Assembly: GCA_052327205.1 (NCBI GenBank)
Contig: JBMRGM010000043.1
Coordinates: 31,744,001 to 31,808,000 of the forward strand
Source of the DNA: Somniosus microcephalus
Lineage: Eukaryota
Length of the DNA: 64,000 nt
Reading direction: 5' to 3'
Part shown: positions 6,689-61,071 of the stretch, in pieces
How positions within the stretch are numbered: position 1 is the first letter of the stretch
Layout of the letters: the number at the start of each line of letters is the position of its first letter
The notes under the pieces: model-generated
What the model saw: the letters and a program-made list of their open reading frames with translations, nothing else
Database searches by the model: none
Told to the model about the DNA's origin: nothing
Position numbers and translations under genes: made by a program

Positions 6689-6694
6689 GGTACC

Positions 6695-37908: not shown

Positions 37909-37939
37909 ATGAAGCACATCTGTCGCCTTCTGATCTTCA
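37909..37939 (+). CDS. Gene B exon S1 (MKHICRLLIF)
   Basis: 31 nt then gtaagt. Confidence 0.85.
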
Positions 37940-40642
37940 GTAAGTGAATCTCAAATATTTCCAGTGCCTTTGAAAGTCAACGTCACTCACCCCTGACAGT
38001 TAATCAGATTAATAAGACTCATTCTGTGAGAGGGATCATCACGCTATATTAATATTCAGAGATTATTAAGGTCAAACATTCATTTAAAATGCATTGAAAT
38101 GTCATTTCTATGCTTCAGTTTTAATCAAAATTGAATGCAACAACAGAAATATGTTTGCTTAGTCAGGCTAACAGGATCTTTCTGCTCATCTAAGGGGATC
38201 CCTCTTTACTATTAAAGGTTGCAGCCCACTTAAGATTGCTTCTAAACGGTCCAATGTTCATTATTTTACCAATTATTTAGCATCACCTGCAGAATCTGGT
38301 TGGACATTTCTTATTGTTCTAGTTTTGCTTATGAGGAAAAAAAAAATTTATACGCTTCATATCAAGTATCAGCGTTGGCTCAGTTGACTCACTCTTACAA
38401 ATTGCTATTAATACATGCGGTGAGATTTAAAGTGCCTGGCTTCTGTAGCTAGATGTTAAAATTGGTCCGTATCATTGCTTGATGATTCGAGATCCACAGG
38501 CAAGTTTCTTGTTAACATCTGCCACAGAGAGAGAGAGAAAGATAGAGAGCAAGAGAATGGCAGAGCGAGAGAGAGATAGGGACAGAGAGAGACAGATAGA
38601 CAAAGATAGGAAGAAAGTAACAATCTAGATGTGCACGAGGGAGAGTGACAGAGAGAGTGAGAGCGAGGGCAGGAGTGTTTTTCAACTCAGCTTTTCACAT
38701 TCTTTATGAAGGGCTTATTTTATTTTCAGGTGTGAGGGACAAAATATATATTAGCGGGACGACATCCCTTGAGTTAACAAAGCTGAGGAGAACACATTTA
38801 CTATGATTTTACTTGAGCTAAACTGACGGCTTTAGGGTGTTTGGCAGAGAAATTAAAAATGCTGGATCTTTAAAATTAATTTCTGATGCTGTTTACTGGA
38901 ATTTAGAGATAAGTGACTCTTTATGGCCACATGACTTTGAGGCTACCTTTGTGAGATGCTGACGTCAGCGCTCTATTGTCTTGTTACCCACTGGACCACA
39001 AGACCAGCAAACAGGAACAAATAACAGGGTTTGCATCTTTAATGTACCACCGACTCTTTCACCAGAATCTCATCTTTTTCAATAACTTGACATTAGTTGT
39101 GGGACCATGTTGATTAAATCTAGTTCGACAGATTAATGAGGTAGAGCATAAAAGATGTGAAGTTAATCTCAAATTGATCATTCTTAAGCATATAATAGGC
39201 CCCATGATTTATTTGTTGCACAGCGCATGAAACCCACTTTTTGGAAATATTGGCCTAACTGAATGCTTGAAACATTCACCCTATTGAGTCCCAGCTGGAC
39301 GAAAGTCCCAGGGTCTCCATGTTGAACAATGAAATACAGACACATCTGCACTGATCATTGACCCATTTGCAATTATTTTTGCAAAGTTGCAGCGACAGGC
39401 ATTGCCTTAATAGTGTGATTCCTGTGGTCTGAGGCGTGATAAAAGCTTTCTGCTGCTTTCTGCTTCTAGCTGCTGGGTCATGTATTGTCTTCACGAGTAT
39501 CAGTTGCAACCCTGGCAATACTTGTAATTCTGATTAGGTTAAAGATGAGTTAACTGGTAATAGGAACATAACAACAGGAGTAGGCCATTCAGTCCTTCGA
39601 GACAGCTCTGTCATTCAATTATATGATGGTTGATCTGTACCTCCACTCCAGTTAACCTACCTGGCTCAGTATCCATTGTTACCCTTACTCAACTAGTGTC
39701 AGCCGAGGCTCAGTGTATAGCATTCTCGCCTCTGAGTCAGAAGGGTCGTGGATTCCGTTCCTACTACAGGGACCTGAGCACAATCATCTAAGCTGATAGT
39801 GCAGTGCTGAGGGAGTGCTGCACTGTCGGATTGGCTGTCTTTCGGATGAGACGTTAAAGTGACGCCCCTTCCAGGGTGTTTATCCCTGATGCCCTGGGCA
39901 ATATTTGTCCATCAATGACGTAACAAGAACAGATAATCTGCTCATTATCAACATCATTGTGTGAACATTGGCTGCCACATTCCTACAGTCACTTAACTTT
40001 AAAAGTCTTTCATTGGTTTTAAAACGCTTTCGGAAGTACGGAGGTCTTGAAAGGTGCTATAGAAATGCAACTATTTCTTTCATTTTAATAAATAAATGAT
40101 CGATCTCCATCTTTAAAGCACCAATTTACCCCCAGAATCCACAGCGTTTTTTGCAAAGAGCGTTGCAATTTCTCACTGCACATTGTGTGAAAAAGTGCTT
40201 CCTGATTTCCATCCTAAATGGCCTATAAACAATTTTAAAGGAATGCTTCCTTCTCCATGACAGAACAATCACACTCAGTGACTCTCAGAACAATGACCAT
40301 TTCAATCTTTGTCAGTATCCATTCATCTGGCAGCAACTTTTCCGTGTAGTCCTCAGACCATTAGGAACTTAACTAAAAACAATTTATCTTTGTTCGTGAG
40401 AGGGACAACTGGCATCATTCGATGTGTTAATATTTTACATTTACTTTAACTGAAGTGAATACATGTCGCCACGTATAGACTGGTGGCAAATGTGTTACTG
40501 CCTGCTTTGTGTCCCTGCCGAGGTCAAATTTCACCCCTGGGTGTTTCCTCTATTCAGCTGCCTTACAGCTTAGCAGCTTTGGTCAAACATGAAGATGGCC
40601 TTAGATAATGAAACATATTTTACTTTGTCTTCTCTCTTTCAG

Positions 40643-40672
40643 TGCAAGTTACTCATCAGGCGACCACACAAG
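40643..40672 (+). CDS. Gene B exon S2 (30 nt)
   Basis: tttcag|TGCAAGTT..CACAAG|gtatga. Confidence 0.85.
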
Positions 40673-41049
40673 GTATGATGACAATAATGTCCATTATTGA
40701 TAAAAATGCAGTTTGTGGAATGAACGCTTCAAATTTATATCTAGAGGACAGCAGCAATCCAGCAATGGAGTAATTGTCAGCTGTTCACCCGAGTGTAAAA
40801 CTGACCTTCTGGATTCGCGACCTATAAGAGAAACGCTCGATCATCATTTTAATTGATTGAGTGGGAATATAAAGTGGGCGGTTTCTCTAACAGTCAGCCA
40901 ATCAGAACCCCAGTTATAAGCCTCAGCGCCAAGTTTAATGTCCAGCACAATTTATTAAAGACAAAGTGACCTATAAATTGGCCTGGGTAACTGCCAGCTC
41001 AGTCACCTGAGGATTGGAAGCGAGTAATAATAAATGAGTAAATAAATGG

Positions 41050-41650
41050 ATGGATAAATAGACAGTTCTTTGATGAAGTAACAGCGAGTGTTGATGAAAT
41101 TAGTGCGTTAATGTTGGTTATAGACTTTCAAAAAGCGCTTAATGAAGATCAACGTAACAGACTTGTTAGCAAAATTGAAACCAATATGAATAAGGGGAAG
41201 TGGCAGTGTGGTTAAGAAATGGACTGAGACAAAAAGCAGAGACTAGTTGTGAAGTGAATATTCAGCGGTGTCTCGCAGATGTCTGTATTGAGACCTCTGT
41301 TCTGTCTGATATTTATATATCACCTGGATTTGGGTATACATGGGCACAATTACAAGCCTTGCAAAAGTCATGAAGCTCGGAAATGTAGTAAGGAATACGA
41401 AAGGTCGAAGCAGGCTTCAGAATGATAAAGACAGAGGGGCGAAATAGGCAGACACATGGCAGATACAATTTAATGCTGGAAATTGCAAAGGAAAGTTACT
41501 AAAAGTGTACCAGGGACACGGGATTTCAGTTGCATGGAGAAACTAGGGCTGTTCTCCTTTGAGCACAGAAGTTTAAGGTGTGATTTGATAAAGGTGTTCA
41601 AAGTCATGAAAGCTTTTGATACAGTAAATAAGGAGACACTTTTAAAATGT
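41050..41650 (+). mobile_element. Old CR1 fragments
   Basis: IDFQKA and MEKLGLFSFEHRSLRCDLIKVFKVMK remnants. Confidence 0.7.
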
Positions 41651-41976
41651 AAGTTAATTATATTTGAAACGCCTACCACCTGATACAGCGAGGCGATTGT
41701 GCCACAAAACCATTGGTCCTTATGAAAATCATAGCGGGCAGAGATTCGGGCGAAAGGGATGGTAAGTCTACCGATCCCATCTCGAGGTTCTTACCACCCG
41801 ATTTCGGCAAGTTAATGTCACCTCTTAAATAGAAATTTTGGTCAACAGCCCGCCAAAAGTTAGCGCCTGTTTGGGACACTGAGTAGAAATAACCACTGTA
41901 TTTATTACAGTGGATATTTCATAGATTAGAAGTTCAATATTTCTAACAACAAATTCCTTTTAATGTCTTTCTGCAG

Positions 41977-42210
41977 CTTCTGGACCGGAAGTGCTGGTTA
42001 GTTATCCCAGCAGTGGAGTCGTAAAGGAAGGAGATACATTTAAACTGCAGTGCCGATACACTTATTGGTGGAAAAATAATGAAAAGTTACCTGAATCTTA
42101 TGGGGATATTTATGAATCGCTTGTCGACAGTAGCAGTGGCGGCTCTGACCAGTGTGAAATGTTTTCGGTAGAATGGCGGAGGAGTGAGACTTTGGAAGTG
42201 GTCACCATCG
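41977..42210 (+). CDS. Gene B Ig domain 1 exon (open, shortened)
   Basis: ASGPEVLVSYPSSGVVKEGDTFKLQCRYTYWWK..SDQC..VTI; 234 nt. Confidence 0.8.
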
Positions 42211-42922
42211 GTAGGTGAACTTTGACACTTAAAATCTGTATTTATCTACCGTCTTTCACGACCTCCGATAGCACCATAGTGGGCAGCGAGTGAGCCAGGC
42301 CTATTGTTGATTATTGGCTGCTGAGTCAAACCGCTGGAAGTGGCCAGCGTCGGTCGCTGAACTTTGACCCATAGTCAGCTCAGCTCTTGTCCCGAAAGGT
42401 TACGTTTTTAAAGAGGCCTCTCACTAAATCGTAAGACAGTGTAGCAAACATATTATATACTTGAACAAAATTGCCAAATGTTCACCGGGGTGAAGCGTGC
42501 GGCCAGTCCACAAAACTGAAGTCCCTCTTCCCTGATACCATTCTGGTGCAACTCCCTTCAACCAGCTCTGTTCTAAATAGAACAATCCCAGCTCCTTTAG
42601 TCTCACCACACCTGATGAACAAATAAAAGTCGCTCCTTGAGAGAGGGCCGAGTTTGTTGCTCATTTGTAGAATCGGGTTTCTAAGTAAAAGTTATTTGAT
42701 GAACGTTTGCAGGACAACATACGGGGAGTCAGCTGAACATTAGAAGGGACACGTGACTTTATAATGCCACACCTGTCGCTATGGCTTTTCGGGTTATAGA
42801 TGTGTTCATTACTGAAGTGATTAGTATAGCTGCACTTTAAAGGAAATATACTATAGGATGTCATACATGTAATTTAACATATTCCAATTTGTACTTACTT
42901 AATATTTCTTTCATACTGTCAG

Positions 42923-43183
42923 CTTCTGATATGATTATAACTCTTAAAGTAAATCCAAGAGCCGCGCTGTCAGGAGAACCAATTATCCTGAATTGTTTGG
43001 TGTCTGACCAGAAAGGGACAGGATACTTCCTGTGGTATCAGAAAGAAGAGATAATAATTGGAATTTTTCAATCTCAATACATCATAGCTAAAGTGGATAT
43101 TGCAGATGAGGCATCTTATCGGTGCGAACACAGAATATGCTACAGGAAGTGGCTCTCACCGGAAGTTAACCTCACCATAACAG
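42923..43183 (+). CDS. Gene B Ig domain 2 exon
   Basis: ASDMIITLKVNP..ILNC..FLWYQK..ASYRC..SPEVNLTIT; 261 nt. Confidence 0.85.
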
Positions 43184-44742
43184 GTTAATCCCTGGTTTGG
43201 TTGTTTTCCTCCAAAATTTGCTGCTTGGTAATTTGCGGAAAGATGGAAAATGAATCGAAGTGCATTCTTTGACCAGAAAAGTTCTGATGAAATTGGTAAA
43301 TATTTGCAATTACTGGGAAAACATCCCAAGCTGGGCACTTTAGGCAAGTTTCTGGGTCGCATGTGGCAACATAACACACTCTGTTACTGTAAGGGCCCCA
43401 TGAATCCATAGGAGGGGAGGTCTCCTTCTCGGTTGCACCTGAGAACTATTGAGAAATGTCGTGGGGGGTCATTTGCAATTCATTTCCGTGCTCTCAAGCT
43501 GCTGTGCGATTTCATGTGTAACCCCGTGCTCATATCACTGGGACTAGCGTCAGTAATAAGAAGGTGGTTAGAATGTGGAACTCGCTCCCACAGGGAGTAG
43601 TTGATGAAACTGCATTTAATGTGAAGATAGGTAGGCACATGTGGGAGAAAGCAATATATGGATATGTTGCTGGGGTAGATGATGAAAGGTGGCCAAAGAC
43701 ACGTGTTGAGGATAAGCACCTGCATGGACTTATAGGGCCGAATGACTCTCTGCTGTAAATACTGGGAGCAATTTACTATGAGTCTGGTGGTGGTGATCCA
43801 GTTTTCCCCAATAGTTTCCTATCCATTTAGCCATGGCGGGCCCCAAGAAAGGGAGGCTCTTGAACAACACTGGTTGTGGAGCTTTCATCGGTTATAATCT
43901 GCCAAAGAAAGTCTTTGTGAGGATCCAGGGGCATCCTAAAGATATAACAAGGTAGGTAGTTATTTGACTTAAATACTCGCACCTGCCGATCTTAGGTCCT
44001 GGAAGACTTTGAACTGCTAATCTTCGGCTGCAGCCTGAAAGCTCCATTTCAAAGTTAACATGAGTCCATTACCCATGCTCTCGGGCCTACTGTTGTGTTT
44101 GTAACCCAATGTAAGACCATCCCAACATAGCAGGATTTGATGCTAAAGGATGGGAGTTGGTACCTGAGTCAGGCTTATAGCTGAGGCCTAGAAGCATTGG
44201 GGCGCTCCTTTCCTTATGTTCCCAAAGCATTTCTGGCATCCTGATCCGGCTGGGCGTCTCAGAATGCAAATTGAGCTGGAGTCACTCCTTCCAGAATCTG
44301 GTGGGATGGATGGAATGCCCCTCAAAAAATCCGGTGTAATTTCCATCTTTTGAAATCAATGGAATACATATACGACGGGTTCAGTAAGCAATAAGTGATA
44401 CTTTGTGCCGGATTTTCTATTCCCTTTTCTGCTTATGAGTTTCTGAACCGCTGTACACAACATGGATTATTTCAGAGTTCCAACCTAAGAAGAGCTGTGC
44501 CAAATGATGGGGAAGTTCTGCATGAGGAGAGCAAAATCAATAAACAGCAATTGGAACCATCAGTAAATTCAGCACCAACTGACCACTGCTTCCTTTCTGT
44601 TCTGTATTTGCCCCAGCCTGGATTGGAGTTGCGATTGGGATTATATAATGTGTCCAATGTATTCGGGCTGTTGTCAAAGCAGTTCTTAGTTTGATTTACT
44701 CATTTGTTAAACTAAACCACGAAATTCTTCTCCCACCATTAG

Positions 44743-44997
44743 ATCGCAATGTGGCCTTCCAGGTCGACCCATGTTCGGTTTTGGAAGGAGATGTTCTGAA
44801 TTTGAATTGTCGGTACAGGAAGTATTATTTCTGGAAATATGTTGGCTTTTTCAAAGGCAATAGAAGGATCCACTCAATGAAGTTGAATCATTGGAATGCT
44901 CTGCATAGCATTAGGGTGAATAGTTCAAATGACAGCGGATCGTACCATTGTACTAATGACAAAAAGATTTCTCGAAGTGTTCATGTTCACGTTCATG
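44743..44997 (+). CDS. Gene B Ig domain 3 exon (FcR D2-type; absent from gene A)
   Basis: DRNVAFQVDPCSVLEGDVLNLNC..VGFFKG..DSGSYHC..VHVH; ttag| and G|gtatgt; 255 nt. Confidence 0.85.
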
Positions 44998-45428
44998 GTA
45001 TGTATTTCAATTGGTGATATCCCTCTTTAATATTTATAAATATTACAGATCTGAGAAGTTCTGAATCTGTACTAAATTATACATAGTTCTGTGATTCTGG
45101 AATAATGTGCTCACGTTAGATCATATGATGTTTATCTAACAATGTGCTACTTTACTCGATATTTAACCCAGGGTGGGTCTCCTCCCATGCCAGCACCAGC
45201 AGATTTCCTTCTCCTGCCTCCCCACCTCGGAGGTGAATTTGTCGGCTTCTCCCATTACCACCCTGTCACATCTAGAGGCTGACAGAGAGTTTTCTCCCAG
45301 GAAATCGAAATATGAAGCTGCCTCTCTTCCTTAATTACCACGGTGTGGAGATGCCGGTGTTGGACTGGGGTGTACAAATGTAAGAAGTCTCACAACACCA
45401 GGCTATAGTCCAAAAGTTTTATTTGAAA

Positions 45429-45465
45429 CCACAAGCATTCGGAGCGCTGCTCCTTCGTCAGGTGA
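45429..45465 (-). ncRNA. Mutated hammerhead copy in the inverted arm
   Basis: Reverse complement reads tcacctgacgaaggagcagcgctccgaatgcttgtgg (GAAA changed to GAAT). Confidence 0.65.
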
Positions 45466-46838
45466 AGTGGAGAGATGCCTATAGACACAGATTATATAGT
45501 CAGTGAATAATGCCAGATGATTACAGGTAATCTTTCTAACTGCCATTTATCACACCTCGGCAGAGAGATAATCACAGCAATCAAAGGTGTGAATGGTGTC
45601 CAAACAGGTCAGTCAGGAAAACATTACATCGAAGAACAATGAGGTGGGGTCACAAGGGCTAATATGTTGCAGATGCTGGGGTCTGTAAGAAAAACAAAAA
45701 GCAGACAAAAACATTTTCTTTGCTGGAAATCACAGCAGGTCCGGCCGCACCTGTGTAGAGAGAACAAGCCAACGACGACTCGAGTCTGGAAGACCCTACA
45801 TCAGGTGCGGTTACATGTAGCGTGACATGATCCCGAGATCCCGGTTGAGGCCCTACTCATGAGTTAGGAACTTGGCTATCAGTTTCTGCTCTACCATTTT
45901 GCATTGTCGTGTGTCTCGAAGGCCGCCTTGGAGAATGCTTACGTGAAGATCGGAGGCTGAATGTCCTTGAGCACATCGCTAAGTCCATCTCCACGCCTCC
46001 ACTACTCACCTTCTAACAGCTGCCTAACCTCAAACAGACCATTGTTCGCAGCTTTCAGGAGATCAGCGACCATGACACCACACAACTCTGCCATGGCAAC
46101 CTTTCCAACACATGCCAGATCATCAACACAGATACCATCATCACACGTGAGGACACCACCCACCAGGTACATGGTACATACTCATGTGACTCGGCCAACG
46201 TTGTCTACCTCATACGTTGCAGGAAAGGATGCCCCGGAGCATGTTACATTGGCGAGACAATGCAGAAACTGCGACAACGGATGAACGCACACCACGCAAC
46301 AATCGCCAGGCAGGAGTGTTCCCTCCCAGTCAGGGAACACTTCAGCAGTCAAGGACATTCGGCCTCCGATCTTCGGGTAAGCATTCTCCAAGGCGGCCTT
46401 CCAGACACATGACAATGCAAAATCATACAGCAGAAACTGACAGCCAAGTTCCGCACTCATGAGGACGGCCTCAACCGGGATCTTGGGTTCATGTCACGCT
46501 ACATGTAATCCCACCTGACGAAGGGTCATCCAGACTCGAGTCCTCGTTGGCTTGTTCTCTGTACACAGATGCGGCAGGACCTGCTGTGATTTCCAGCAAA
46601 GAAAATGTTTTTTTCTGTTTTTTGTTTTTCATACAGACCCCAGCATCTGCAACATTTTACCCCTTGTGACCCCACCTCATTGTTCTTTGATGTAATGTTT
46701 TCCTGACTGACCTGTTTGGACACCATTCACACCTTTCATTGCTGTGATTATCTCTCTGCCGAGGTGTGATAAATGGCAGTTAGAAAGATTACCTGTAATC
46801 ATCTGGCATCATTCTATGTGTATAGGCATCTCTCCACT

Positions 46839-46875
46839 TCACCTGACGAAGGAGCAGCGCTCCGAAAGCTTGTGA
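46839..46875 (+). ncRNA. Minimal type I hammerhead ribozyme (Penelope-type)
   Basis: TCAC-CTGACGA-A-GGAGC agc GCTCC-GAAA-GC-T-T-GTGA: stem I TCAC/GTGA, 5-bp stem II, palindromic AGCT stem III. Confidence 0.8.
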
Positions 46876-47493
46876 TTTCGAATAAAACTGTTGGACTATA
46901 ACCTGGTGTTGTGTGACTTCCAAATAACCACGATGAGGAGTTAACAAAAAGTACCAGCAGGTCCACGTGAGCCCCTGAAACTTCAGTGGTGGGTCCGCTG
47001 ATGGACTTTGTGGAAGGATAGAATAAGCAGTGAGCTCCTCTCCACTCTGTTTTGCTATTTTCACTTACGTGTTTGACGTAAGCTTAGAGACAGACTCCTA
47101 ATAAACTATGGGAGCAGATTCCCTTGGATGTCCTTGTCATCACAGCGGGTGATTTGTATCATCACTGATCCATCGCCCTGGCCATGAGAATCCAGATTCT
47201 TTGTAATTTCAGATGGTGACAGCTGAGCTGGGGGCTGGCTGGGGACAGAGCGATGTAGCTGTGAACATTTGTGGAGTTCACCCTGGTCATAGTAGATAGT
47301 GAGACACAGCAGGGTATGGCTAAAAGAGAAAAGAACTATGGGAGAATTCCTGCTGAAACATATGTCTTGTCCTGTTTGGGATTCCAGTTTCAGCACAATA
47401 TATTAAGCAGATTAACTTCTCTGCAAACAACGCAGCGAGAGGAATTCCATAACAATATGGTAATGCTTCCTGCTCCATTGTTCCACAATACAG

Positions 47494-47588
47494 CTGCTGG
47501 TTACCATTTATTGCAGACGCCCCTCGTGGCGATTCTCGGTATTGCCTTGCTCCTGGTAATAAGCTCTGCTCTTTGTTCAACTCAGTGA
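47494..47588 (+). CDS. Candidate alternative terminal exon (GPI-signal/TM-like), gene B
   Basis: cttcctgctccattgttccacaatacag| acceptor in phase 1; AAGYHLLQTPLVAILGIALLLVISSALCSTQ-stop. Confidence 0.55.
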
Positions 47589-47628
47589 TCGGAACTGTGA
47601 CCTGTCAATCCAGATTCTGTTTTCACAG

Positions 47629-47904
47629 AACTCTTCTCCAAACCTAAACTGAGGACTGACCCTGCTGGTGAAATATTTGAGGGACACCAGTTAGTATTCA
47701 TCTGTATTATTGAAACAATGCCGGACAGTATTGAGCTTCAATACTCATTTTACAAAAATGGCAAAGCTCTGATATTGACTTCATACAACAACTTTAAGCT
47801 TACAGAGACAGCTTCTTTGAAAGACTCGGGGGCTTACCTGTGTGAAGCAAATGTTTCCTACCACGGTGTGAAAAAGAGTGATGAGGTTTCCATTGAGGTT
47901 AAAG
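47629..47904 (+). CDS. Gene B Ig domain 4 exon (FcR D3-type, intact)
   Basis: ELFSKPKL..FEGHQLVFIC..LQYSFYKNG..DSGAYLCEA..VKKSDEVSIEVK; 276 nt. Confidence 0.88.
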
Positions 47905-49216
47905 GTAATTACAGCCAGCTGTAATTATTGTTCATCTTTGATTTAATGGGGCTTATAGTTAAATAAACATACGGGAGGGATCCAGTCTGGTAAAGGATTT
48001 ACCCACATGTTTATCACGTAATAACTCAATTTTGAATGCAACATGTTTAAATCATAGCGCCATCTGGTTATTAGACTATCCATACATTTGCTGAAAAACG
48101 AATTTGTAAAAGCTGCAACGTTTGAGGACCAGTGCCCACTCCCAGTGGGTAATATAAGCTGCTTGCAATAGTGTGGAATTGGGCGCTATTCAATTTACCT
48201 CCCATTATATGTCCAGTCCGTTTTTGCCTCCATTAATTTTCAATGGACGGGAAAATCATGCGTAGTGTAGAATTGGTGCAAATTCCGGTATCATACGTTT
48301 TAACCCATGGCCCAAAGCTAAAGTTACCACCTCTGTTTCTGTTTGGCAGATTCAGCAGCGGGCAGAACCTGGTCAGGAACAGCAGGGTGATTAACCAGAC
48401 AATGCCTTACCACTTACTAGCCCCGGAAATCTTTTATAGTTGAAAACTCGGGGGTAAAGTTTAACATTGAGAGCGCTAAATTCGATCGGCAGAAAATGGA
48501 ATTGAAATTGGCCTCTGTTTGTAAAGGGTGACCAATCTGCTCCACCGGTTTTGCACCCCAGACAACTTGAATTTTCACCCCCTCCAATTTCAGTAGAGGT
48601 GGCGGCAAAACGCCCGAGGTCACTAAAGTCTGTGCCTCTGATGCCCGGGGATTCCTTCCCACTCCGTTAGATCCGGCCAATCATAACTCTAGCTTCGCAT
48701 TTTCCACGCAGCAGGCAATCTGAACACAAGGTGGGAGTTATCAATCCTGTGTCGGCTGTGTATTTCAGAAATATTGTATTGTCAGTAGCTGAGCGTTTAA
48801 CATGAATGTCCTAAAATTTGCAGGTGCTGCAACAATGATCAAGGTTATTTCAGTATTTAAGACCGGGTAGTAAAGCATCGCCTGGGCGGAGAGCTGTGTT
48901 CAAATGGTGGAGTGGTGGGGGATAATCTCAAAGGACTCGCAGGATGGTTCTTCCATTCATTTCAATGGAAGGGTTAACTGGTTCCCCAATCTAGCCACGA
49001 CAGATTGTTCAGATCTCAGGTGATAACTGTGTCAATGTCCCAAACTGCATATTCCCGTAGCAGAGCGCAATCAAGGATTATTGAAAGCCTCTTTCTCTGA
49101 GCCGCTGTCGGCGTTTCATTGTTCTGCTCATTAACATGAGTTGTCCAAACACATAAATTGTTAAGTCTGTGATGGATGTGGAAACCGGAAAATCCACATG
49201 TCATTCTATTTTATAG

Positions 49217-49495
49217 AGGTCTTCTCCATACCGACAGTGAGGGCTGAGTCTGGAACTCAATTATTTGAGGGCCAACAGTTAAATCTCATCTGTTTTGTTA
49301 AAATATTTCGATCCAATACTTCCTTGAGACTCATATTTTACAAGGATGGACAATCTCTCACTTCAGCGGCAGACCACAACTATTACATCAAGGAAACATC
49401 CCTGCCGGACGATTCGGGGATTTACCAGTGTGAAGCAATTGATTTGAACAGTGCTCAGTTTCTTTAGCTCAATCAGGTTTCCGTTTCAGTCGGAC
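49217..49495 (+). pseudogene. Gene B Ig exon with a premature stop created by an 18-bp inversion
   Basis: Paralog of 18580-18858; TAG at 49465-49467 inside the inverted segment 49453-49470. Confidence 0.9.
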
Positions 49496-49887
49496 GTGAG
49501 TAAAATTTAAGATAATTGTTTATCACTTTTAAAGAGAACATGAACATCATAGAAAACGGGCGGCTCTGATTCAACATATCACCAGGGAAGTAAAATTGTT
49601 TTCTCCAGGATAGACTTGAGGTACTGGGACTAACACTACCGGATTAGCCATGGCTAAGGATTATTTAATTAGTGTTTTTTACATGCCAATTGCGAGATAG
49701 GGCGATTCTGGAAATGTATTCTCTCTGATTGCAAAGACAGGAAGGAGGGATCAGTAATATTTAATTATCATTAAATCGGGAAGGTAGCACTTTGAAGTAC
49801 GTTCTTTACATAGACGAGTGCTGGAACATAGAATGATTTGCCAGGTGGAGCGGTGGAGTTAGTTACCATAGAATTAATGTAGAGTAG

Positions 49888-50113
49888 TGTGGTAAACCAC
49901 TGTTTGTATACTGTTTGCATTCCATTGTGTACATGCCTGGACATGCCTCGGCTGACTCCTCCCACAAGTCCTAGTATAAAGGTGGCTGCTCCCCAGCCCT
50001 TTGTATTTCTGGACCGGTCGACCACTCGAGGCAGACCTCCATTCTTTTGTTAATAAAAGCCTTTAGTTACTCTCCTAACTCTCAGTCTTTTATGAGTAAT
50101 TGATAGCGCATCA
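49888..50113 (+). mobile_element. Solo LTR (226 bp)
   Basis: TG...CA; 5-bp TSD AGTAG (49883-49887, 50114-50118); TATAAA at 49975 and AATAAA at 50052; absent at the paralogous site ~19450. Confidence 0.88.
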
Positions 50114-50721
50114 AGTAGTTTTTATGGTACTGGAATAGTGCATTGCTCCTGCCTTTCAATAGCAATGAGAAGGGAAACTGGGTGTGGTGTATGATGAGCG
50201 GATAATTCCACGCGCTGCATTTCACACCATCTTGTAAAATTCAAAATACCCTCCGAGTTGTTCAGCATGAAACTCAGTGCAAGTTGTACTGTTGGCTCAT
50301 TGTCACCACCACAATGATGCCGGTGACAAAGGAACGCTGCACATGATTGTTTCAGTGCATGAACGAACCTACCAGAAACAATTATCTTGTTTGGTAGCGC
50401 AAAAATATTACCGTCCACTTGCTATATTCCTCGTTTGATATACAGTCCTGTTGAAGACTTTCAATTTTGGAAGAAATCCTACTCTTTGGAGTTATGTGCA
50501 GAAACTTTAGGTAGAACGAATATTCGATATCAGTGACGGTACATCGCAAGGGCAAATCTGAACTAAATATATTCGCCAATGCATTTGCAGCTGATCAGCA
50601 ATTCTTGATTTATTTATTTATCTGATTTAATCTAAGTTAGTACTCAATATAGGCTTCAATTTTGAATTGTAACTTGCAGAATTAATTCTCTACATCTTTA
50701 ATCTTGTTTGCTTTCGTCTAG

Positions 50722-51024
50722 TGCCTGTAGCTTGTGCTTCTCTCACTTCCAATACAAACAAAACGGAGATTTCAGCGGGGGACCGTCTCGTTCTCCAGTG
50801 CCTGGTGATGAGAGGCACTGTACCACTTTTCCGCTGGTACCTGAACAACCAACTGTTAGAAAACACCAGCGATTCTTAACACTTCAACACGGACGGGAGT
50901 GAACTCATCATCAATTCATTCCAGAAAGGGCATGGAGGGCGCTATCACTGTGTAGCGACCAACAGAGGGATGTATGAAAGGATTTTTAATACAACCAGCA
51001 ATTATATCGATGTCACTGCACCAG
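50722..51024 (+). pseudogene. Gene B Ig exon with a nonsense mutation
   Basis: Paralog of 21684-21986; TAT changed to TAA at 50877-50879. Confidence 0.9.
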
Positions 51025-52344
51025 GTAACTGATTCATTGTGCTTGATATGAATATATCAATAACTTTTCTTTCGGCAAAACAAACAGTATATTGAATTCG
51101 CATGATTTATGCCTCAGAGGACACATCACAACGCAGGTGAACATTTATAAGTTGAACTTATAGATAAGAAATTGAATATTATAAGGGAAAATGTCTCTGA
51201 AATAAACTAGCAGCATTTCCCAAGTGCGTTTTATTACTTGAAATGGACAGGGGAACTACAAGAGCCTTGGAGAGAAAGTGAGAGTGTGAGAGATTGGAAG
51301 GGAAAAGAAAGCCCTGTCTGAAAATAATGGTCCTGTGAAGGTCTTTGAAGCAGGATGTAGTAGAGATGGAAAGAGGATTAATGAGGTGGTTTAGGAGCGT
51401 TGAGCCAAAGCACTTTCACTAATGGTGTGACGAAGTAAGCGGATAAGTCGAATCGGCCAGAAACAATTGGCTGAATGGTTTAAAGACAGAGAAAAATGTG
51501 GACGAGATTTGTCTGAACCATGCTGAATATGAGGAGCAGTGGTTTAAATTTGATGCCTTGAAGGACAGGGAGCTCGATGGACAAAATGTCGAGCAGCTTT
51601 TATTGTGGCACAGGAAAGTTTGGATTAGTTGGAGATTGTGGAAGGCCGGGCTTGGAACCGAGAAAGGAACGCATTGAAGTCAATGAGGCGAGAGCTGAAC
51701 AATCCATGGATCAGTGGTTCAGGAGTACTAAATGGGGGAGGGAGGAAATCATTTCTATGCAGCTGTTAATATGTCAGAACCTCCTCTGCAAAGCGAATTC
51801 GTTGCGGTTGCAGTGATAGGCGAGTTATTATAAGTATCCCTGTGGCAGAACGCAACAAGTGACGCAAAGACAGATCACCCTGCTTGTGCCGTAAGCTTGG
51901 ATGGTGTAACATCTTCTTTGACATCCATCTGTGTGAAGGGAGGCCCTGGTGACACAGGTGAATGACAAAAAAGTACAAGGAATGTAATTTTAACGCATCA
52001 AGTTTTTGATTCTGAAAACCAGTACAGTTACTTGTCTGTTTAACTTAATAGAACGCTTTGTATAAATGCCAAATAGGGTGAATTTATGCAGATAGGTTAA
52101 TGCTTCAAATCTTAATACCACAAGCAGTCATTTCTGGGCTATAGATTTTAGACTATAATTTGTCGACAGTCGTTGCTAATGTTCTTCAGCTCAAATAGAA
52201 TATATAGGTTCGAGACAATTAATTTTGTTCGATTGGCATCTGTGGAGCACTCGGTCTGCTGTCTCGAGTTATGTTGAAGGCTTCACCCTGATGGCTAATA
52301 TTAACTTTGGGAGAGGTGTAACATGAGTTATATCGATTTCATAG

Positions 52345-52710
52345 AATCATAGAGACTGACAGCACAGGAGGAGGCCATTCGGCCCGTCGTACCTGTGCTG
52401 GCTCTTACAAAGAGCAGTCGTCGTGCTGAGCCCCACACCCCCCGCATTTTGTCCATTACCCTCTAAATTCCTCATCCTCAAGTAGCTGCCCGAGTCACGT
52501 ATAAAATTATTGATGGAATGGGCTTCAACCACCTTTGCAGGCGGAGCAATCCAGATCCAGACAATGCACTGAGGTAAAAAAAAGATCATCTCATCTCCCC
52601 TCTAAATCGTTTGCCAATGCTTTTGAATCTATGACCTCTGATTATTGACCCACTCGCCAGAGGGAATAGTATTTTTCTATCTACTCGATCAAAACCTCTC
52701 AAAATCTTGC
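52345..52710 (-). mobile_element. CR1 3' fragment
   Basis: FFLPQCIVWIWIAPPAKVVEA remnant; catagaatcataga tail. Confidence 0.75.
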
Positions 52711-53281
52711 AATGGCCTCTCATTGTAAACCCCTCCTGTTATTTCCTTCCTAGTTTATGACTAGCGGATAATTCGACAAGGTGCATTTCCAAACCATCCT
52801 GCCAATTTCACGTTACCCCCTGATGATATAACATGCGCCCAGTGCGATGTCGCCCTTTTATGCTTCCATCCCAGACAGATTTATAAGCTCATGTCCAGAC
52901 ACGTTAGTTAGAACTGATATTCAGAAGGTTAGAACTAACCTATTCAATGGCAACTGGGGATGGGGAACAAATGCTGATCTTGCCAGCGACTCCCAAATCC
53001 TGTGAATGAATAAAAGGTCGACCTCACTGATGGTACGACACAAGGACAATTCGGAATGAACTGTTTTCACCAATGCATTTACAGCTTACCTGAGATTTGA
53101 GTTTGAACCTGAACTTGCTGAATTAATTCCTGGGAACGGAATTAGGGAAGCAGTTTAGGAGAGTAGGGCCAGAGTGGATAACAGATTCATTTGAATCAGT
53201 CGGAGTTTCTCGAGGTTTGGATTGGGGACCCAGAAAGGAAGGAATTCTAAAAATCAAATTTAGAGCTGCAAAATCAAAAAG

Positions 53282-56065
53282 AATATAAGGAATAAGAGCT
53301 GGAGTCGGACATTTGGCCCTTCGAGCCTGCTCCACCATTCAACAAGATCTTGGCAGATATTCTACCTCAACTCCATCTTCCCGCACTATCCCCATTTTTA
53401 GAATTCCCTTAGGCCCAAAAATGTATCGACCTCTGTCTTGAATGTGCTCAACAACTGAGCCTCTACAGCTTTCTGGGGTAGAGAATTCCAAAAGATTCAC
53501 AAACCTTTGAGTGAAGAAATTTCTCCTCCTCTCAGTCCTAAATGGCCGACCCCGTATTCTGAGCCACTGACTCCGTGTTCTAGATTCCCCAGACAGGGGA
53601 AACATTTTATCAACAGTAAACCTGTTAACCCCCTTAAGAATGTTATATGTTTCATTTGGATCTGCTCTCATTCTTCTAAACGCTAGCGAATATATGCCTA
53701 GTCTACTCAATTTCTCCTCATAGGGCAATCCCCTCATCACAGGAACCAGTCCACTGATGCTGCATTGCCCTCTCTTAAGGCAAATATATCCTTCCTTAGA
53801 TAAGGAGACCAAAACTGCACACCGTACTCCAGGTGTGGCCTCACCAATGCCCTGTATAACTGTAGTAACAATTCTTTACTCTTATACACTAATCCCGTTT
53901 TTAACAAAAGGTAACATTCCATTTGCTTTTCTAATTGCTTGCTGTACCTGCATGTTAATTTACTGTGATTCATGTACAGGGAAACTCAGGTTCCTCTGAA
54001 AGCAAATAATTCCTAGAATCTCAACATTAAACAAAAATCTGCTTTTTTTTCCCTACCAAAGTGGATACATTCAGACTTCCCCACACTGTATTGCATTTGC
54101 CATGTGCTTGCCCACTCAATCAATTTGTCTATATCTCTCAGCAGCATCTTTGCGTCTTCATCGCAACTGACTCTCCCACCTAATTTTGTATCATAAGCAA
54201 ACCTGGATAGGATACACTCTGTCCCTTCATCAAAGTGATTAATATAGGTTGTAAATAGCTGCGGCCCAAGCAACTACCCTTGCGATACCCCATTAGTTAC
54301 AGCTTGTCAACCCGAAAAATTCTCATTTTTTCCCACTCACTGTTTCTTTACATTATCCAATCCTCAATCCATGCGAATATATTTCCCACAACGCCATGAG
54401 TCCTAATTTTGTTTAATAACGTCTTGTTTGGCACCTTATCAAATGCTTTTTGTAAATCCAAATACATTGCATCCACTGGTTCCCCCTTATCCATCCTACT
54501 AGTGAGATCTTCAAAAAACTCTGGCAGATTTGTCAAACACGATTTCCCTTTTCTGAACCCATGTTTACTCTGCCTAATCATATTACAATTTTCTAAGTGC
54601 CTTGTTAACACGCCGCAATAACAGATTCTAGCACTTTGCCTACTACTGATGTCAGGCTAACTGGCATATAATTCCCAATCTTTTCTCTTCCTTCTTTCTT
54701 AGGTAGTGGGGTTATGTGTGCTACGTTCCAATCCTTGGGGACTGGTCTAGAATCTAGGGAATTCTGAAAGATCAGTACCAGTACATCCTCTATCTCTGCA
54801 GCTACCTCTATTAAAACCATAGGATGCAGGTTTCAGGTCCTGGGGATTTGTCGCCACTCAGTCCCATTAATTTCTACAGTACTATGTCTTTACATATACT
54901 GACTTCTTTAAGTTCGTCATTCTCTCTAGACCCTTGGTTCCCCATTGCTTTCGGAATTTTTTTCTATCTTCCCTAAAAGCCCCTTTACTACAAGTTTAGT
55001 AATTAACCCTTCCTCATTGCACAATACTAGATCTAAAAAACTCTGTTCTGTAGCGGGTTTCTCCACATTATGATTATAAAACTATCATGAACCTGTCCTC
55101 CATACTTTTACTGCAAACTTGGTTTGCCCCATCTATATGTAGATTAAAGTCCCAGATGATAGCTTTATTATCCTCGTTACATTCGCTTCTAATATCCTAA
55201 CTTATACTCTACCCTACTTTACATCTGCTGTCTGGGGGCCTACAAACAAATCCCACAAATGTCTTCTGCCACTTGTTGTATCTTAGCTCCACCCAAACTG
55301 ATTCTACTTCTTAATTTTCCGTGCTAAGATCCTGTCTCTCCACTGTCTTTTTCCCATCCTTTATTATCAGAGCTACCCTGATAACAAGAGCAGTTAAAGA
55401 GAGTATTAGATCATAGGAAGAGGCTTATAATGTTGCTAAACAGAGTAGTAAGCTTGAGGTTTGGGAGGATTTTAGATTTAAGCAAAGGAGGACCAAGAAA
55501 TTGATAAGTAAAGAGCAAAAAAGAATATGAGAGTAAATTAGCAAGAGATATAAAACAGATTGTAAAAGTTTCTATAGTTAGGCAAATAGGAAGAGATTAG
55601 TGAAAGTTAACGTGGGACCATTAGATTCAGAGATTGGAGAAATTATAAATGGCAATAAGGAAATGACAGACACATTAAGCACATATTTTGTGTCTGTCTT
55701 CACTGTAGAAGACACAAAAAACATTCCGGAAATAATGGGGAACCAAAGATCCAGAGAGAATGAGGGACTTAAAAAAATAATTATCACTTAAGACATAGTT
55801 CTGGAGAAATGAAGGTGGTGTTGAGGTAAAAGATCAGCCAGGATCTTTTTGAATGGCCAAATGGACTGCTCCAGCTCTTATTTCTTACATTATTATGTAC
55901 ACCATCCATGTTGCCCATCTCTTCTGAAAGTTAAGTATCCTGTAATATTTAGTTCCCAACCTTGGTCACTGTGCAACCACGTCTGCATAAGTGCTATTAG
56001 ATCGAAACTATTAACTTATCTGCGCTATTAATTGATCTATTTAGTTGTGAATGGATCAGCGCTGC
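53282..56065 (-). mobile_element. CR1 LINE (EN-RT-3' end, degenerate) with a nested + strand CR1 piece at ~55377-55897
   Basis: Minus-strand ORF pieces KHGFRKGKSCLTNL, RFAYDTKLGG, VRPHLEYGVQFWSP; plus-strand piece KVNVGPL..YFVSVFTVED. Confidence 0.9.
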
Positions 56066-56173
56066 GTTATGGTGGCATTGAGGTGGGGCAGGATGGATTC
56101 AATTAATTGCAGGTCTAATATTCATTTTTAATGATGCACATGACATTCATGGGTTATGTTTATATTATTCCAG

Positions 56174-56275
56174 TGCAGGGTCCCACAACCGCGATCAGAG
56201 CCTCAGTTCTTACACTTTCTCTTGTCGCTGCCCTGATTGCACTGGTTCTCGTCAATCTTCCCAACAAGAAACAAG
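56174..56275 (+). pseudogene. Gene B TM exon, splice donor mutated
   Basis: QGPTTAIRASVLTLSLVAALIALVLVNLPNKKQ; caag|ttgagt versus caag|gtgagc in A. Confidence 0.8.
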
Positions 56276-56791
56276 TTGAGTAATGTTTACAGACTGGTGA
56301 CTGGCTCTACAGTCACGTGAAGGGATTCCGTGTATTCCAAGCACAGTTGCCACCTTCAAAATGTAACCATATGATTTGGGATAGATTCGAGTAGTCTGGG
56401 CTGGAGAAAGAAAAATGTAGTTTGCAATGATGAGATCAGAACAGATATGAGCTTAATTCTGGGGTGAACTTGCTCGGTTAACGAAATTGTTTGCCCCTGT
56501 GTGCTGTTCAGAATAGATACGTATCTGGTCGAGGGGCAGAACAATAAGTGACTGCATCACTCGTGGTTAGTGTGAGGAGATGAATTGGCCTAAAGGATTT
56601 GTAATTCAGTATATGGGAACACCTTAAAAGTTTCTGCACGTCTTTTCTGTATTGATGCTGTATTAATAAATCATTGAATGTACGTTTGTAAATATATAGT
56701 ATTGACATGAATGAATATGTTTGCTGTAAAAACAAACCAACTGTGTTTACTGTACAACTTGCTGAATTAGGTCTCTTCCTATTTTATCCAG

Positions 56792-56822
56792 ACAATTCTT
56801 CAAAATTTTCACAACAGCTGGG
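56792..56822 (+). pseudogene. Gene B cytoplasmic exon 1 remnant
   Basis: DNSSKFSQQLG; splice sites intact. Confidence 0.75.
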
Positions 56823-57394
56823 GTAAGTCCACGAATGTGTTATATCAATAAGGCGTAGTAATATCCCTGAATATATTCAGTCTCTGTATAGCTGAATTAA
56901 ACACTGTTAATGTTTTTGGGGTAGATTTTGAATTTGAATTGAGCTTAAGTCCGCCATTACGGATCAACTGCCTGTTATAGAAATCGTCCCATTTTATTTC
57001 ATTTGAGTTCAATGGGATTGAATAACATTTGCTTTCTACAACTGCTGTCGGTTCCACGATGCCACTTTTAAGCCCGGGCAGCAAGCTGAAAATATGCCCC
57101 TTTGATTATGGGGCTCATCAGTAGCTCGCACTCACGCTATTATACTCTCAGCAGTCTATAAGATTTGATCATTTTCTAATTTATGTCCGTTGTAGCTGGA
57201 CTTCCTAACTTAAATAACGTGAAATTCACCCTGCGTGGTACAGTAAAAGGGATGATTACAAATCGTTTTACAGTCCGCACGATATTAAATTCCACTGACT
57301 TGTAAACGAATTTTGGGTGGATTGTAAAAACCGTCGGATATTCTCTGCGCACTGCTCTCCACCATCGTCCAAGAAGGCTTTAAAAACATGAGAA

Positions 57395-58190
57395 AATAAG
57401 ATCATAAGAAATAGGTGCAGGAGTTGGACATTCGGCCCATCGAGCCTGCTCCGCCATTCAATGAGATCATGGCTGATCTTCTGCCTCATCTCCATTCACT
57501 GGCCCAATCGCCATATCCCTTGATGCCTTTACTAGTCAGAAATCTATCGACTTCTGTTTTGAATATACACAATGAATGAGCCTCCACAGCCCTCTGGCGT
57601 AGAGAATTCCAAAAGATTCACCAACCTCTGTGTGAAGAAATTTCATCTCATCTTAGTCCTGAATGGCCTTTATCCTGAGGCTGTGGCCTCTGGTTCTCGA
57701 CTCCCCAGCCAAGGGAAACATTCTCCCAGTATCCACCCTATCAAGCCCTGTAGTAATTTTGTATGCTACAATGAGATCCCCTCTCATTCTTCTGAATATA
57801 AGAGAATTCCTGCCTAGTTTACTCAATATCTTCCCACACGACAGTCCCCCCATCCCAGGAATCAATCTTCTGAACCTACGTTGCACTCCCTCTATGGCAA
57901 GTATATCCTTCCTTAGGTAAGGAGACCAAAATTGTACACAATACTCCAGGTGTGGTCTCAAAAAGTCCCTCTATAATTGGAGTAGGACTTCTTTACTTCT
58001 GTACTCAAATCCTCTTGTAAAGAAGGTCAGTATAACATTTGCCTTCCTAATGGCTTGCTGCACTTGCACATTCACTTTCACTGACTCATATGCAAGGACA
58101 CCCAGGTCCCTTTGAGCATCTGAATTCCACAATCATTCATCATTTAGGAAATAATCTGACTTTCTGTTTTTTCTACCAAAGTGGATAACT
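57395..58190 (-). mobile_element. CR1 3' fragment
   Basis: RPHLEYCVQFWSPYLRKDILAIEGVQRRF..RTRGHSLRIK. Confidence 0.9.
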
Positions 58191-58426
58191 AACCTTAATT
58201 ACATGCACAATCGCACTGCATATTAAATCTTAGAAAGCGTCAGTTCCCTGAGATTTACATGATGATTAAATTTGAGGATTGAAAAATGACCAAGCTCACT
58301 GAGTGATTGAAGAGTTTGGGGAATTAATTTCAAGAAGACTTTATATTTAATTTTATTTAAAAGCGATATTTCTGTTGTCGGTGATTTTTGTTAAACTTTA
58401 TTCACTGAGAACATTTCTGCACTAAG

Positions 58427-58518
58427 GAAGGCAACTGGAAATAGATCTCGACCCCCGAGTGAAGAGAAGTCTGCAGACAATTCCGAGTATGCAGGTGTGG
58501 TATCTGCCCAAATCACCG
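58427..58518 (+). pseudogene. Gene B cytoplasmic exon 2 remnant (SEYAGV)
   Basis: 92-nt paralog of 25476-25567. Confidence 0.75.
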
Positions 58519-58796
58519 GTAAGCTCGACCTGATCTGCATGTGATGAACTGTAGATAGCTCGGGGTATCATTTCCATTCAGCATCAATATCACTTACACT
58601 TTCTCAATCTCTATGTCTATGTCAAGTCTACTTCTATGACTCTCTCAATCGAACAGCATCTCTCATTCTAAATCTATCTTTCTCTATTGCACTAACTCAC
58701 TATCTCTATGTACCTATCTATCTCTACCTCTCTATCTCTGTATCTCTTTCGGTATCTTTCTATATCCCTTTCTATTTCTGTCTCTCCTATCTCTAT

Positions 58797-59347
58797 TGGA
58801 TGCATTTTCTGATGGGAGCCATCCTGCGGACGGATGCCTCCAATTGGAAAAAAATCTCCGAACATACCAGCTGCCTCCGTCGGTCCCGCGGAAATGCGCA
58901 GAGGCCCAAGTATCCCAGGGGCGCATGCAGTTCGGAAGCATCCCTGGGAAAATTTTAAAAACCATCACGTATATAAAATTAGTTCAAATACTTTAAATTA
59001 AATATTTTAGACGAAATATTAATCTTTTAAAAAATGATTTTTTTAACGGGGCTAAATATAAACTTATATTTTTTAAAGTATTTTTAAATTATAAATGGCA
59101 TTTTATTTTTAATTCTTATGCTGTTACCAGGCATAAGATTATTAAAGGTTTTTAACGGGCGGAAGTTGGGCAGAAAGCGGATCTCCCCAACTGCAGAGGC
59201 CCTTCTCCTGGGCATACGGATTCTTGACAGATCGGTAGTGCCGGGTTTTAGCGCCTGCGCTTGCCATGCCTGAAACCGGCACTTGCGAGGCCACTACGGG
59301 TGCGTACACACCTGGTACGCACACGTGGGCGTCAGATAATCCGGCCG
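58797..59347. mobile_element. MITE (Harbinger-like family)
   Basis: Imperfect TIRs, GC-rich arms around an AT-rich centre; internal gtatcccagggg..agcatccctggga is shared with the MITE at 6986-7680. Confidence 0.65.
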
Positions 59348-59464
59348 AATATATCTAACACTGTCTCAATGACCATGTCTATGTGCAGCCTATTTCTATG
59401 CATTTGTTTATGTCTACGTCTGTGCCTATCTCGAGCTCGATCTCTATGTCCACCTCCATCACCA

Positions 59465-60765
59465 TGTGCCGTACTTTCCAATCAGAGGCTTCCTGCGTGT
59501 GGAGGCCTCCGACCTGGGAAAAATCTACTAACTTACCTGAGAGTTCCCGAGGTCCAGACACTTCCACTCCTGGGCCTCCCAACTCGAAATTTGCAGGGCC
59601 CACGTATCCAAGAGGCAATGGCCTAGAAATTCAGTTTGGGCCTGCCAGCTGGCGTGCGCCCAAAAGTTAGCGCTGCGCGCGGTGCCAGTTGCGCCCGTGA
59701 GATATTTAGTTTCTGCGCCCCAAGTCGGCACCGGGCGCTGTTCCAGGGTATGCCCGCCTCCGCTTGGGGCGCTGAAACTGAATATCAGCGCTCTAGGTGC
59801 CACTGCGCCACCCGATGTGGTGCGGCAGGCTGCGGTACTGCAGGCATCCTCCTTCTCTTAAGGTGGAGGTGCCTGCAACGGGGAGATCGCCGCTGGATTG
59901 TGCCGGCAAATGAGCCCGGCACCACGGAGAAGTGCCGGGCTCACAGAAAGCAGCCAACAATGCCACGGGGGGGGGTGGTGGAGGAGGCCGGGGAAGGAGG
60001 TGCGGGCAGGCGGCCGCCGAAAAAGCGGCCGGCCGCACCTCCACCTTTATGCGCCCCACTAAGGCTGCAGGAAGGCCCTGGTCTCCGGATGTTAGTAGCG
60101 GCCGCCACGGAGGAGGCGGCGGCTACTGAAGATGGGGGTCGGGGCGGTAGCGGGGCGGAACCGGGGCACTGCGCACACCGATGACATCATCGGTGCCGGC
60201 GCAGCGCTACCGGCTACCGCCGCCGTTACGGTGGCACTCAATATCAGCGCTACCACCCCTACTGGCGCAAAAGCCCTCTTTGGGCGAAAACTGGGCGCAA
60301 AGCCAACTGAATTTCCAGCCCAATGTGTTTCACAAGCGTCCTTGGGATCACGTGGGCCATGGGGAGCTAGATAGACCCGTCCAATACAGGAATGTAGATC
60401 ACTCCAAAAACAATGTAAAATATTTTGAAAAAAATTAAAATATCAAATTTTTTACATGAGTTGAAATGACAACAAATTAAATATTTTAAACAAAAATTTA
60501 AATTTTTGGATAAAAAATTAAGATTTTTAAGGGGCTAAAAATAAACTTACTTTCTTAGCGTATTTTGAATTGATAAATGAGTGAATTTTTACTTTTACTT
60601 TTACTCTTTTCAACTCTTATGCTCGTAAAAGCAGGCCTTACGCAGGCATGCGATCAGTCAAGAGAATTCTTGACAGATCAGAAAATACCGGTTTTCAGCG
60701 CATTTCTGATCTCCCTACGTGTGTGTATGCAGTACACCCGCAGCAATCAGAATATCCGGTCCCAT
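59465..60765. mobile_element. MITE of the same family, split by a nested MITE
   Basis: Rejoined core cacgtatccaagaggcaat|gtg..agcgtccttgggatcacgtgggcc resembles the reverse complement of 7500-7555; the 3' end resembles 59200-59345. Confidence 0.65.
59620..60321. mobile_element. Nested GC-rich MITE (PIF/Harbinger-like)
   Basis: TIRs ggcctagaaattcagtttgg / ccaactgaatttccagccc; 3-bp TSD AAT. Confidence 0.82.
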
Positions 60766-61071
60766 CTCTATAACAATCTCCATGTCTATGTCTAGCTCTA
60801 CCTATATATTTCTATCTCTATCTCTAAATTTCCATCTATCTCTCCTATCTATATCTCTCTGTATATAGCAGTCCCTCTCATTCTATCTGTATCTCTCACT
60901 CTAACTCTATCTCTCTCTATTTATCTAACTCTCTACCTCTATGTCCATATCAATCTCCCTCTCTCTATCTGTATCTCTCTGTATCTGTCCATATCCATTT
61001 CTATTTCTATCTCTTCTGTCTCTTTGTATATCCAAGATTCTCTCTATTCATAGAACACATTACATATATGT

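Follow-up and report, generated by a model that had tools for sequence, protein, structure and literature searches.

A window of 64,000 nucleotides of Somniosus microcephalus (assembly GCA_052327205.1, contig JBMRGM010000043.1, positions 31,744,001 to 31,808,000 of the forward strand; positions below are counted from its first letter) holds a tandem duplication of FcR/FCRL-type immunoglobulin (Ig) receptor genes, gene A at 8773-33949 and gene B at 37909-58518, both on the plus strand. From its exons, gene A is a predicted inhibitory-type receptor with five Ig domains. Gene B has an open 5' half and a broken 3' half, and we tentatively favour the reading that it makes a tail-less, non-signalling truncated receptor through intronic polyadenylation. 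Judged by exon content, the two genes together make up one ancestral gene, their losses being complementary.

Gene plan and complementary losses

The ancestral plan consists of seven Ig exons (D1 to D7), a transmembrane (TM) exon and a tail with tyrosine motifs; the domain order and our numbering follow the Chiloscyllium protein P0011 (D1-D7-TM), and the Mustelus protein P0001 and P0006 have the arrangement D3-D7-TM-tail. The exon that an earlier note on this DNA had called D4-type is D6 in this numbering. In gene A no trace of D3 was found within 1-36700, and D4 is left as a pseudo-exon (Table 1) in which 8 of 21 conserved columns are altered, against 2 of 26 in D4 of B (Fisher p = 0.028). 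A stretch at approximately 16400-16568, in the region of the lost D3 of A (16181-17246), we take by eye to be LINE-like (long interspersed nuclear element). The D2 donor of A (GTTGGT) is weak. Within the pair, the FcγRI-type D1-D2-D3 triad is kept by B alone; in mammalian FcγRs the Ig site lies on the D2-type domain.

Open 5' half of gene B and a candidate terminal exon

Both signal-peptide exons and the first four Ig exons of B (S1, S2, D1-D4) are open, in phase 1 and bounded by AG/GT sites, at the coordinates and with the canonical splice sites that the earlier note had given. Hard lesions number none in 1182 nt of 5' exons against three in 807 nt of 3' exons, and where D1, D2 and D4 have changed in length, the net change preserves the reading frame; the AAG missing from D4 of B is present in close paralogs. 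The deletion of about six codons and the change of YQC to DQC reported earlier for D1 are both there, the former as an in-frame gap after the first Cys in an exon 21 nt shorter than D1 of A. D1 is skippable (phase 1-1). Divergence between A and B is greater in D1 and in D2 than in the introns, and the flanks of these exons scarcely align (13864-14118; 41977-43183), which may reflect exchange with other paralogs or positive selection. For D1, the copy in A has moved further from the ancestral state (18 changes against nine in B).

Between D3 and D4 of B lies a short open segment, H, which is a candidate hydrophobic terminal exon and has an open copy in A. Hydrophobic 19-mers occur 11 times in the six frames of the 64 kb, and the top four are H of A, TM of A, H of B and TM of B (H ranking first in A and third in B). 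By score, the acceptor of H is among the best 1.4% of AG sites in B and among the best 7.9% in A, the single indel between the two copies is 3 nt long, and when neutral evolution over the distance between A and B was simulated 5000 times, H came through undamaged in 4-7% of the runs. Its product would have a hydrophobic stretch of 18 residues followed by three more, small residues where the exon begins (judged by eye) and no charged residue. Weighed against the contrary points given below, H is somewhat more likely than not to be, or once to have been, an exon.

An origin of H as a duplicated TM exon, with the true acceptor mutated in B, was rejected: similarity of H to TM is not above that of shuffles (p > 0.1 in seven of eight comparisons, p = 0.04 in one), and the inner AG scores lower than the outer AG. 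Also set aside was a 75-codon frame common to both copies upstream of H, which is not significant; the flanking DNA holds a 72-codon frame.

A candidate intronic poly(A) signal follows D4 of B and has its match at the same place in A (AATAAA at 17314, TGTA at 17262). The course of events that we propose would begin with the tandem duplication of a seven-Ig shark FcR/FCRL gene and continue with complementary losses, A losing D3 and D4, and B recently losing its membrane-proximal and signalling half while keeping D1-D4. We infer that poly(A) addition near 47962 would yield short B transcripts of two forms: D3 spliced to H (301 aa, with a GPI-type, that is glycosylphosphatidylinositol, or tail-less anchor), and D4 with its donor read through (368 aa, secreted), the latter independent of H. 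Both would escape nonsense-mediated decay, since the stop lies in the last exon. The product would bind or buffer a ligand no longer bound by A via D3/D4.

Recent decay of the 3' half of gene B

According to the earlier note, all clearly disabling lesions of B lie downstream of its short form. The stops at 49465 and 50877, the loss of D6 and the TM donor change at 56276 were all found again, all 3' of 47904. As to their being disabling, the two stops would trigger nonsense-mediated decay if D5 and D7 were spliced in with later junctions, but the loss of D6 and the donor change need not kill the gene, since Ig exons are phase 1-1, homologs without D6 or D7 exist and a TM read-through stops two codons on. 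The immunoreceptor tyrosine-based inhibitory motif (ITIM) exons described as missing are so in part: the five later tail exons of A have no match in 56276-64000, where the window ends (scores of 20-29 against 138 for the C2 control), but C1 and C2 are kept and open. SEYAGV, the only tail tyrosine motif of B, stands behind the dead TM donor.

The stop in D5 falls within a 20-nt micro-inversion (49452-49471), which agrees with A at 17 of 20 letters when reverse-complemented and at 5 of 20 when read forward. D6 is missing between D5 and D7, and a displaced remnant of it lies behind D7 (Table 1); derivation of this piece from an internal duplication, marginally supported (its score of 40 compares with 37 for the best shuffle), was rejected. 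A solo-LTR-like (long terminal repeat) insertion between D5 and D7, absent from A, could end transcripts after D5. Run X1 contains an insertion-free version of this site (49888-50113) at about single-copy depth, from an allele or a paralog. Among the variants listed for other samples, none covers 49465, 50877 or 56276.

Introns of A and B are 15.8% different, and 70 of the 81 indels in 6498 aligned columns are of frameshift length. Neutral evolution over the whole branch would be expected to leave 13.2 hard lesions in the 5' exons of B and 8.6 in the surviving 3' exons, against 0 and 3 observed, under a crude model (equal branch split, one rate) and for a pattern chosen after the fact. Three small lesions against 8.6 expected suggest that constraint acted on the 3' half along most of the branch and was lifted over about the last third (~35%). 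Recent decay is borne out by D7, where none of 41 conserved columns is changed; its derived residues number five in B against 13 in A. The structural losses are also all 3', and the 3' span is larger. The clustering of lesions is weak evidence for truncation: under death of the whole gene, the probability that three of three small lesions fall 3' is 0.061, or 0.17 if D1 is counted.

Weighing of the readings

Several results speak against a truncated, functional B. No homolog of H was found in 111 fetched proteins, 2652 candidates, the PDB or the Atlas, in searches weakened by the short query and by representative sets that conceal short isoforms. The D4 acceptor follows 40 nt after the end of H, a place at which hydrophobic codons arise from T-rich DNA, and for H the ratio of nonsynonymous to synonymous divergence (dN/dS) between A and B is 1.0. 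Comparison of dN/dS between the two halves, as the earlier note had advised, gave 0.80 for the 5' exons (S1-D2) and 0.86 for the 3' exons, no separation and no decision between a truncated and a dead B; the ratio includes functional A along with B, and the distal domains are fast-evolving, which makes it uninformative. Conserved columns are changed in 18 of 89 cases in the 5' half of B and in 6 of 66 in the 3' half (p = 0.07), opposite to expectation.

In D1 of B the Cys-Trp spacing is four residues and Asp stands before x-Cys, against a spacing of 9-14 and Tyr (230) or Phe (3) in 233 Ig motif matches (fetched proteins, isoforms included). Structure prediction, another check advised earlier, found this domain well folded, AlphaFold (AF2) modelling it as a full Ig sandwich (pLDDT 84.8 against 72.4 for D1 of A; TM-score 0.89 to a RAGE Ig domain), but it is not decisive on decay: the model was built on a 6-row alignment and is no measure of stability, so it puts little weight on D1 decay either way.

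RNA reads also tell against B. Mapping covered 46950-57350 of B with two runs of the same species label (X4 and X5, 24% and 31% of reads examined; tissue source not stated, no gene A control), and reads in the TM bin 55972-56318, which overlaps a repeat, were not counted. Depth was zero on H, D4, D7 and C1, no spliced RNA joint was seen among the 15/40 joints listed, and the reads obtained were two intronic ones with one start, near D5. The search for B transcripts thus returned none in two uncontrolled runs and is not decisive; paralogs of at least 93% identity gave no reads either, so these samples probably do not express the subfamily, and the blank is weak evidence against expression of B. 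Those paralogs are a further point against it: DNA depth is 43-135 over H-D5 against approximately 20-35 in unique parts, which points to further copies at at least 93% identity over H-D5 and D7, and given these B may be redundant. The window start (1-2381) is 83% like the 3' flank of gene A (34442-36537), so that a third unit probably lies immediately upstream of the window, with its end close to position 1.

B could quite plausibly be a young pseudogene, a redundant member of a cluster subject to birth and death that lost its function roughly a third of the branch ago, with a 5' half not yet hit and D1 as first decay. The lesion probability of 0.061 (0.17 with D1) is compatible with this, as are the unchanged D7 columns that place the decay recently, the existence of closer paralogs and the absence of RNA reads, the outlying D1 among the 233 motifs, and the routine death of exons at this locus (D3 and D4 of A). 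Such a pseudogene would, however, be expected to have 4.6 lesions in its 5' exons (0.35 x 13.2), where none is observed and the net length changes are all in frame; the D6 loss, inversion, donor change and missing tail exons are all 3'; AF2 folded D1 of B; and the RNA blank spans the 93%-alike paralogs too, probably a tissue effect. Open short products exist, and dN/dS is about 0.8-1 throughout, a value to which functional A contributes as well as B. The earlier suggestion that B is truncated rather than dead is slightly favoured by H, the poly(A) signal and the 1182 nt of 5' exons free of hard lesions, yet dN/dS, AlphaFold and RNA leave it undecided.

A membrane-bound B is improbable. Here D5 and D7 would be skipped and the TM donor read through, giving D1-D4-TM (398 aa) with a tail of a few residues and no signalling motif. 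The TM exon and its acceptor are intact, the stop at 56281 is followed by AATAAA at 56665, homologs join D3, D6 or D7 straight to TM, isoforms P0023 and P0122 differ by one whole Ig exon, and removal of ITIM exons by TM read-through is predicted in turtle CEACAM-like genes in the relevant part of PMC13278318. Yet the splice sites of D5 and D7 are intact, so that by default these exons would be included and decay would follow; the transcript would have to get past both exons and past two AATAAA sites on the way, and no D4-TM joint was seen among the joints listed. Still less credible is B as a non-signalling decoy for inhibitory gene A, binding the ligand of A or a pathogen exploiting A. Co-expression of the adjacent genes is plausible, with promoter/S1/S2 regions 86% alike over 4.5 kb, and D1, D2 and H are present in both; but amino-acid identity is 47% in D1 and 51% in D2 against 69% and 79% in D5 and D7, nucleotide distance is 0.28 in D1 and 0.24 in D2 against 0.16 in introns and 0.11-0.14 in D5/D7, and the product of A is without D3 and D4. 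The pairing with A proposed in the earlier note is thus not supported, its least alike domains being the distal ones, the reverse of CEACAM decoy pairs; B could still shadow another, closer paralog.

Returning to the truncated receptor, we consider it unlikely that the duplicates split labour by exon, with the inhibitory tail kept by A and the FcγRI-type triad by B, which would be made as a secreted or GPI-anchored Ig-binding protein. If this were true, a soluble or lipid-anchored Fc receptor would exist in a lineage reported to be without FcR/FCRL. If B is expressed, it would show clearly how a receptor gene can come to encode a ligand binder without a tail when two copies lose complementary exons, and it would be a clonable candidate for the link between shark antibodies and effector cells; if it is dead, the locus illustrates the usual birth-and-death turnover of clustered immune genes.

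Family membership

Assignment of A and B to the FcR/FCRL type follows from domain types and the split signal peptide. Pfam Ig models are matched by all ten Ig exons at E <= 0.1, several of them below the curated cut-off. The best PDB matches are residues 14-71 of FcγRI (its D1) for D2 of A, residues 88-151 (its D2) for D3 of B, residues 168-260 (its D3) for D4 of B, and FCRL5 for D6 and D7; D1 of B has no PDB match at E 0.05. This typing is by best PDB matches, without an outgroup-family tree, and whole-chain scores are inflated by repeats. Domain trees were mostly without resolution. A signal peptide over two exons and one phase-1 exon per Ig domain, which are FcR/FCRL gene features in the portion of PMC2413239 concerned, are found in both genes. 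Their signal exons of 31 and 30 nt depart from the 30/21-nt rule, which according to the same portion applies to FCRL1-6 and FcγRI but only to a fraction of Xenopus members. The tail of A carries tyrosine motifs (IIYSVV, LVYSEV, VTYATV), and its TM segment is uncharged. No other gene was found in the 64-kb window; the neighbours that mark FcR/FCRL loci are the CD2/SLAM family, IGSF9, DUSP23 and TAGLN2.

The nearest named proteins are all from sharks and rays. FcR-like proteins with these domains and ITIM-type tails are present in eight shark/ray genera plus Pristiophorus (P0001, P0002, P0005-P0031, P0112-P0122), and related proteins are annotated automatically as Fc receptor-like or PECAM-like (e.g. 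XP_067878188.1 of Heterodontus, XP_043539698.1 of Chiloscyllium). The shark family is therefore already in automatic annotations, and its presence is not new to databases. Intact homologs without D1, D6 or D7 exist among the fetched proteins, and one splices D3 directly to TM.

Relation to known systems

These elasmobranch proteins share the Ig types, order, TM exon and tail motifs of A and B, with up to 73% identity per domain (D5, Pristiophorus P0002). They differ in that an H-like segment is found at the C-terminus of no protein among the 111 fetched, and in that A is without D3/D4 and B without a functional D5-D7 part or tail. In mammals, FcγRI and FCRL5 resemble A and B in domain order, two-exon signal peptide and phase-1 Ig exons; the shark pair has in addition a distal D1, an S2 of 30 rather than 21 nt and uncharged TM and H segments. 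The genes of the Xenopus XFL cluster vary in their sets of domains, some are inhibitory, and putative secreted forms are represented by cDNAs, as far as the pertinent section of PMC2413239 goes. Like the shark locus it is an expanded FcR-like cluster, but the 64-kb window contains nothing comparable to its activating TM1 members, which have an NxxR motif.

The soluble teleost FcR homologs IpFcRI of catfish and PaFcγRl of ayu bind IgM in the account excerpted from PMC6755117. They resemble the D4 read-through form of B in having Ig domains only, without TM or tail; they are expressed and secreted, whereas the soluble form of B is predicted and would have arisen through decay of a receptor gene. 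CEACAM decoys (with an immunoreceptor tyrosine-based activation motif, GPI-linked, or by predicted TM read-through) are, like B, paralogs of an inhibitory receptor without the ITIM tail. In passages of PMC13278318, such pairs keep the binding domain most similar; in A and B the distal domains are the most diverged.

FcR/FCRL genes are stated not to have been found in cartilaginous fish in passages of PMC4016189, PMC13337447 and PMC7916673, and a passage of PMC13337447 poses as an open question how shark antibodies engage effector cells. A literature search, with most subscription journals and shark genome supplements outside its scope, found no paper on a shark FcR/FCRL family.

Features and mobile elements of the window

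Table 1 Features of genes A and B. Positions are those of the window; domains are numbered after P0011.
Feature	Start	End	Strand	Remarks
Gene A	8773	33949	+	S1, S2, D1, D2, D5, D6, D7, TM and seven tail exons; single open frame, several tyrosine motifs
A copy of H	16831	16928	+	Open; stop placed as in B
A D4 pseudo-exon	16969	17246	+	Acceptor AG to CG, first Cys gone, stops, frameshift; donor intact
B S1	37909	37939	+	31 nt with ATG, first of the two signal-peptide exons; N-termini of shark homologs P0008 and P0006 match it
B S2	40643	40672	+	Signal mini-exon, 30 nt; 1 nt different from A
B D1	41977	42210	+	Ig exon, open; gap of 18 nt, in frame; Asp in place of Tyr at 42147-42149
B D2	42923	43183	+	Ig exon, open; FcR D1 type (typed on A copy); 2 aa shorter than A and homologs
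B D3	44743	44997	+	Ig exon, open; FcR D2 type; no surviving A counterpart
B H	47494	47588	+	Candidate hydrophobic terminal exon, for a GPI signal or an anchor without tail; acceptor in phase 1; stop 47586-47588
B D4	47629	47904	+	Ig exon, open; FcγRI D3 type; 1 aa shorter than homologs; donor read-through stop 47922
Candidate intronic poly(A) site	47962	47967	+	AATAAA, with TGTA at 47920
B D5	49217	49495	+	Ig exon; TAG at 49465; splice sites intact
Solo-LTR-like insertion	49888	50113	+	226 nt, TG...CA, 5-nt target duplication; TATAAA 49975, sense AATAAA 50052
B D7	50722	51024	+	Ig exon; TAA at 50877; splice sites intact
Displaced D6 remnant	51779	52180	+	Last 41 nt of D6 and ~400 nt of intron; GC donor at 51820
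B TM exon	56174	56275	+	Open, with intact acceptor; TT as donor at 56276; read-through stop 56281
B C1 tail exon	56792	56822	+	Intact, canonical sites
B C2 tail exon	58427	58518	+	Open, SEYAGV; canonical sites, but acceptor score poor (-7.5)

A tail exon of A (57 nt) is tandemly duplicated at 26376-28041 (82% over 860 nt), with His in place of the motif Tyr in copy 2. TCTA-rich tracts at 58600-62160, after C2 of B, resemble the tract before C4 of A (27980-28160); no C4 follows within the window.

At 2381-6689 lies a young, internally deleted BEL/Pao LTR retrotransposon, absent upstream of B, with LTRs of 961 nt that are 99.2% identical, a match to the Pao peptidase A17 model (E 3.6e-13) and GTAC on both sides. 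The D3-H intron of B contains a Penelope-like element (45384-46920) with inverted arms of 587 nt, approximately 91% alike, and between them a GIY-YIG fragment (E 2e-4, just below the Pfam cut-off).

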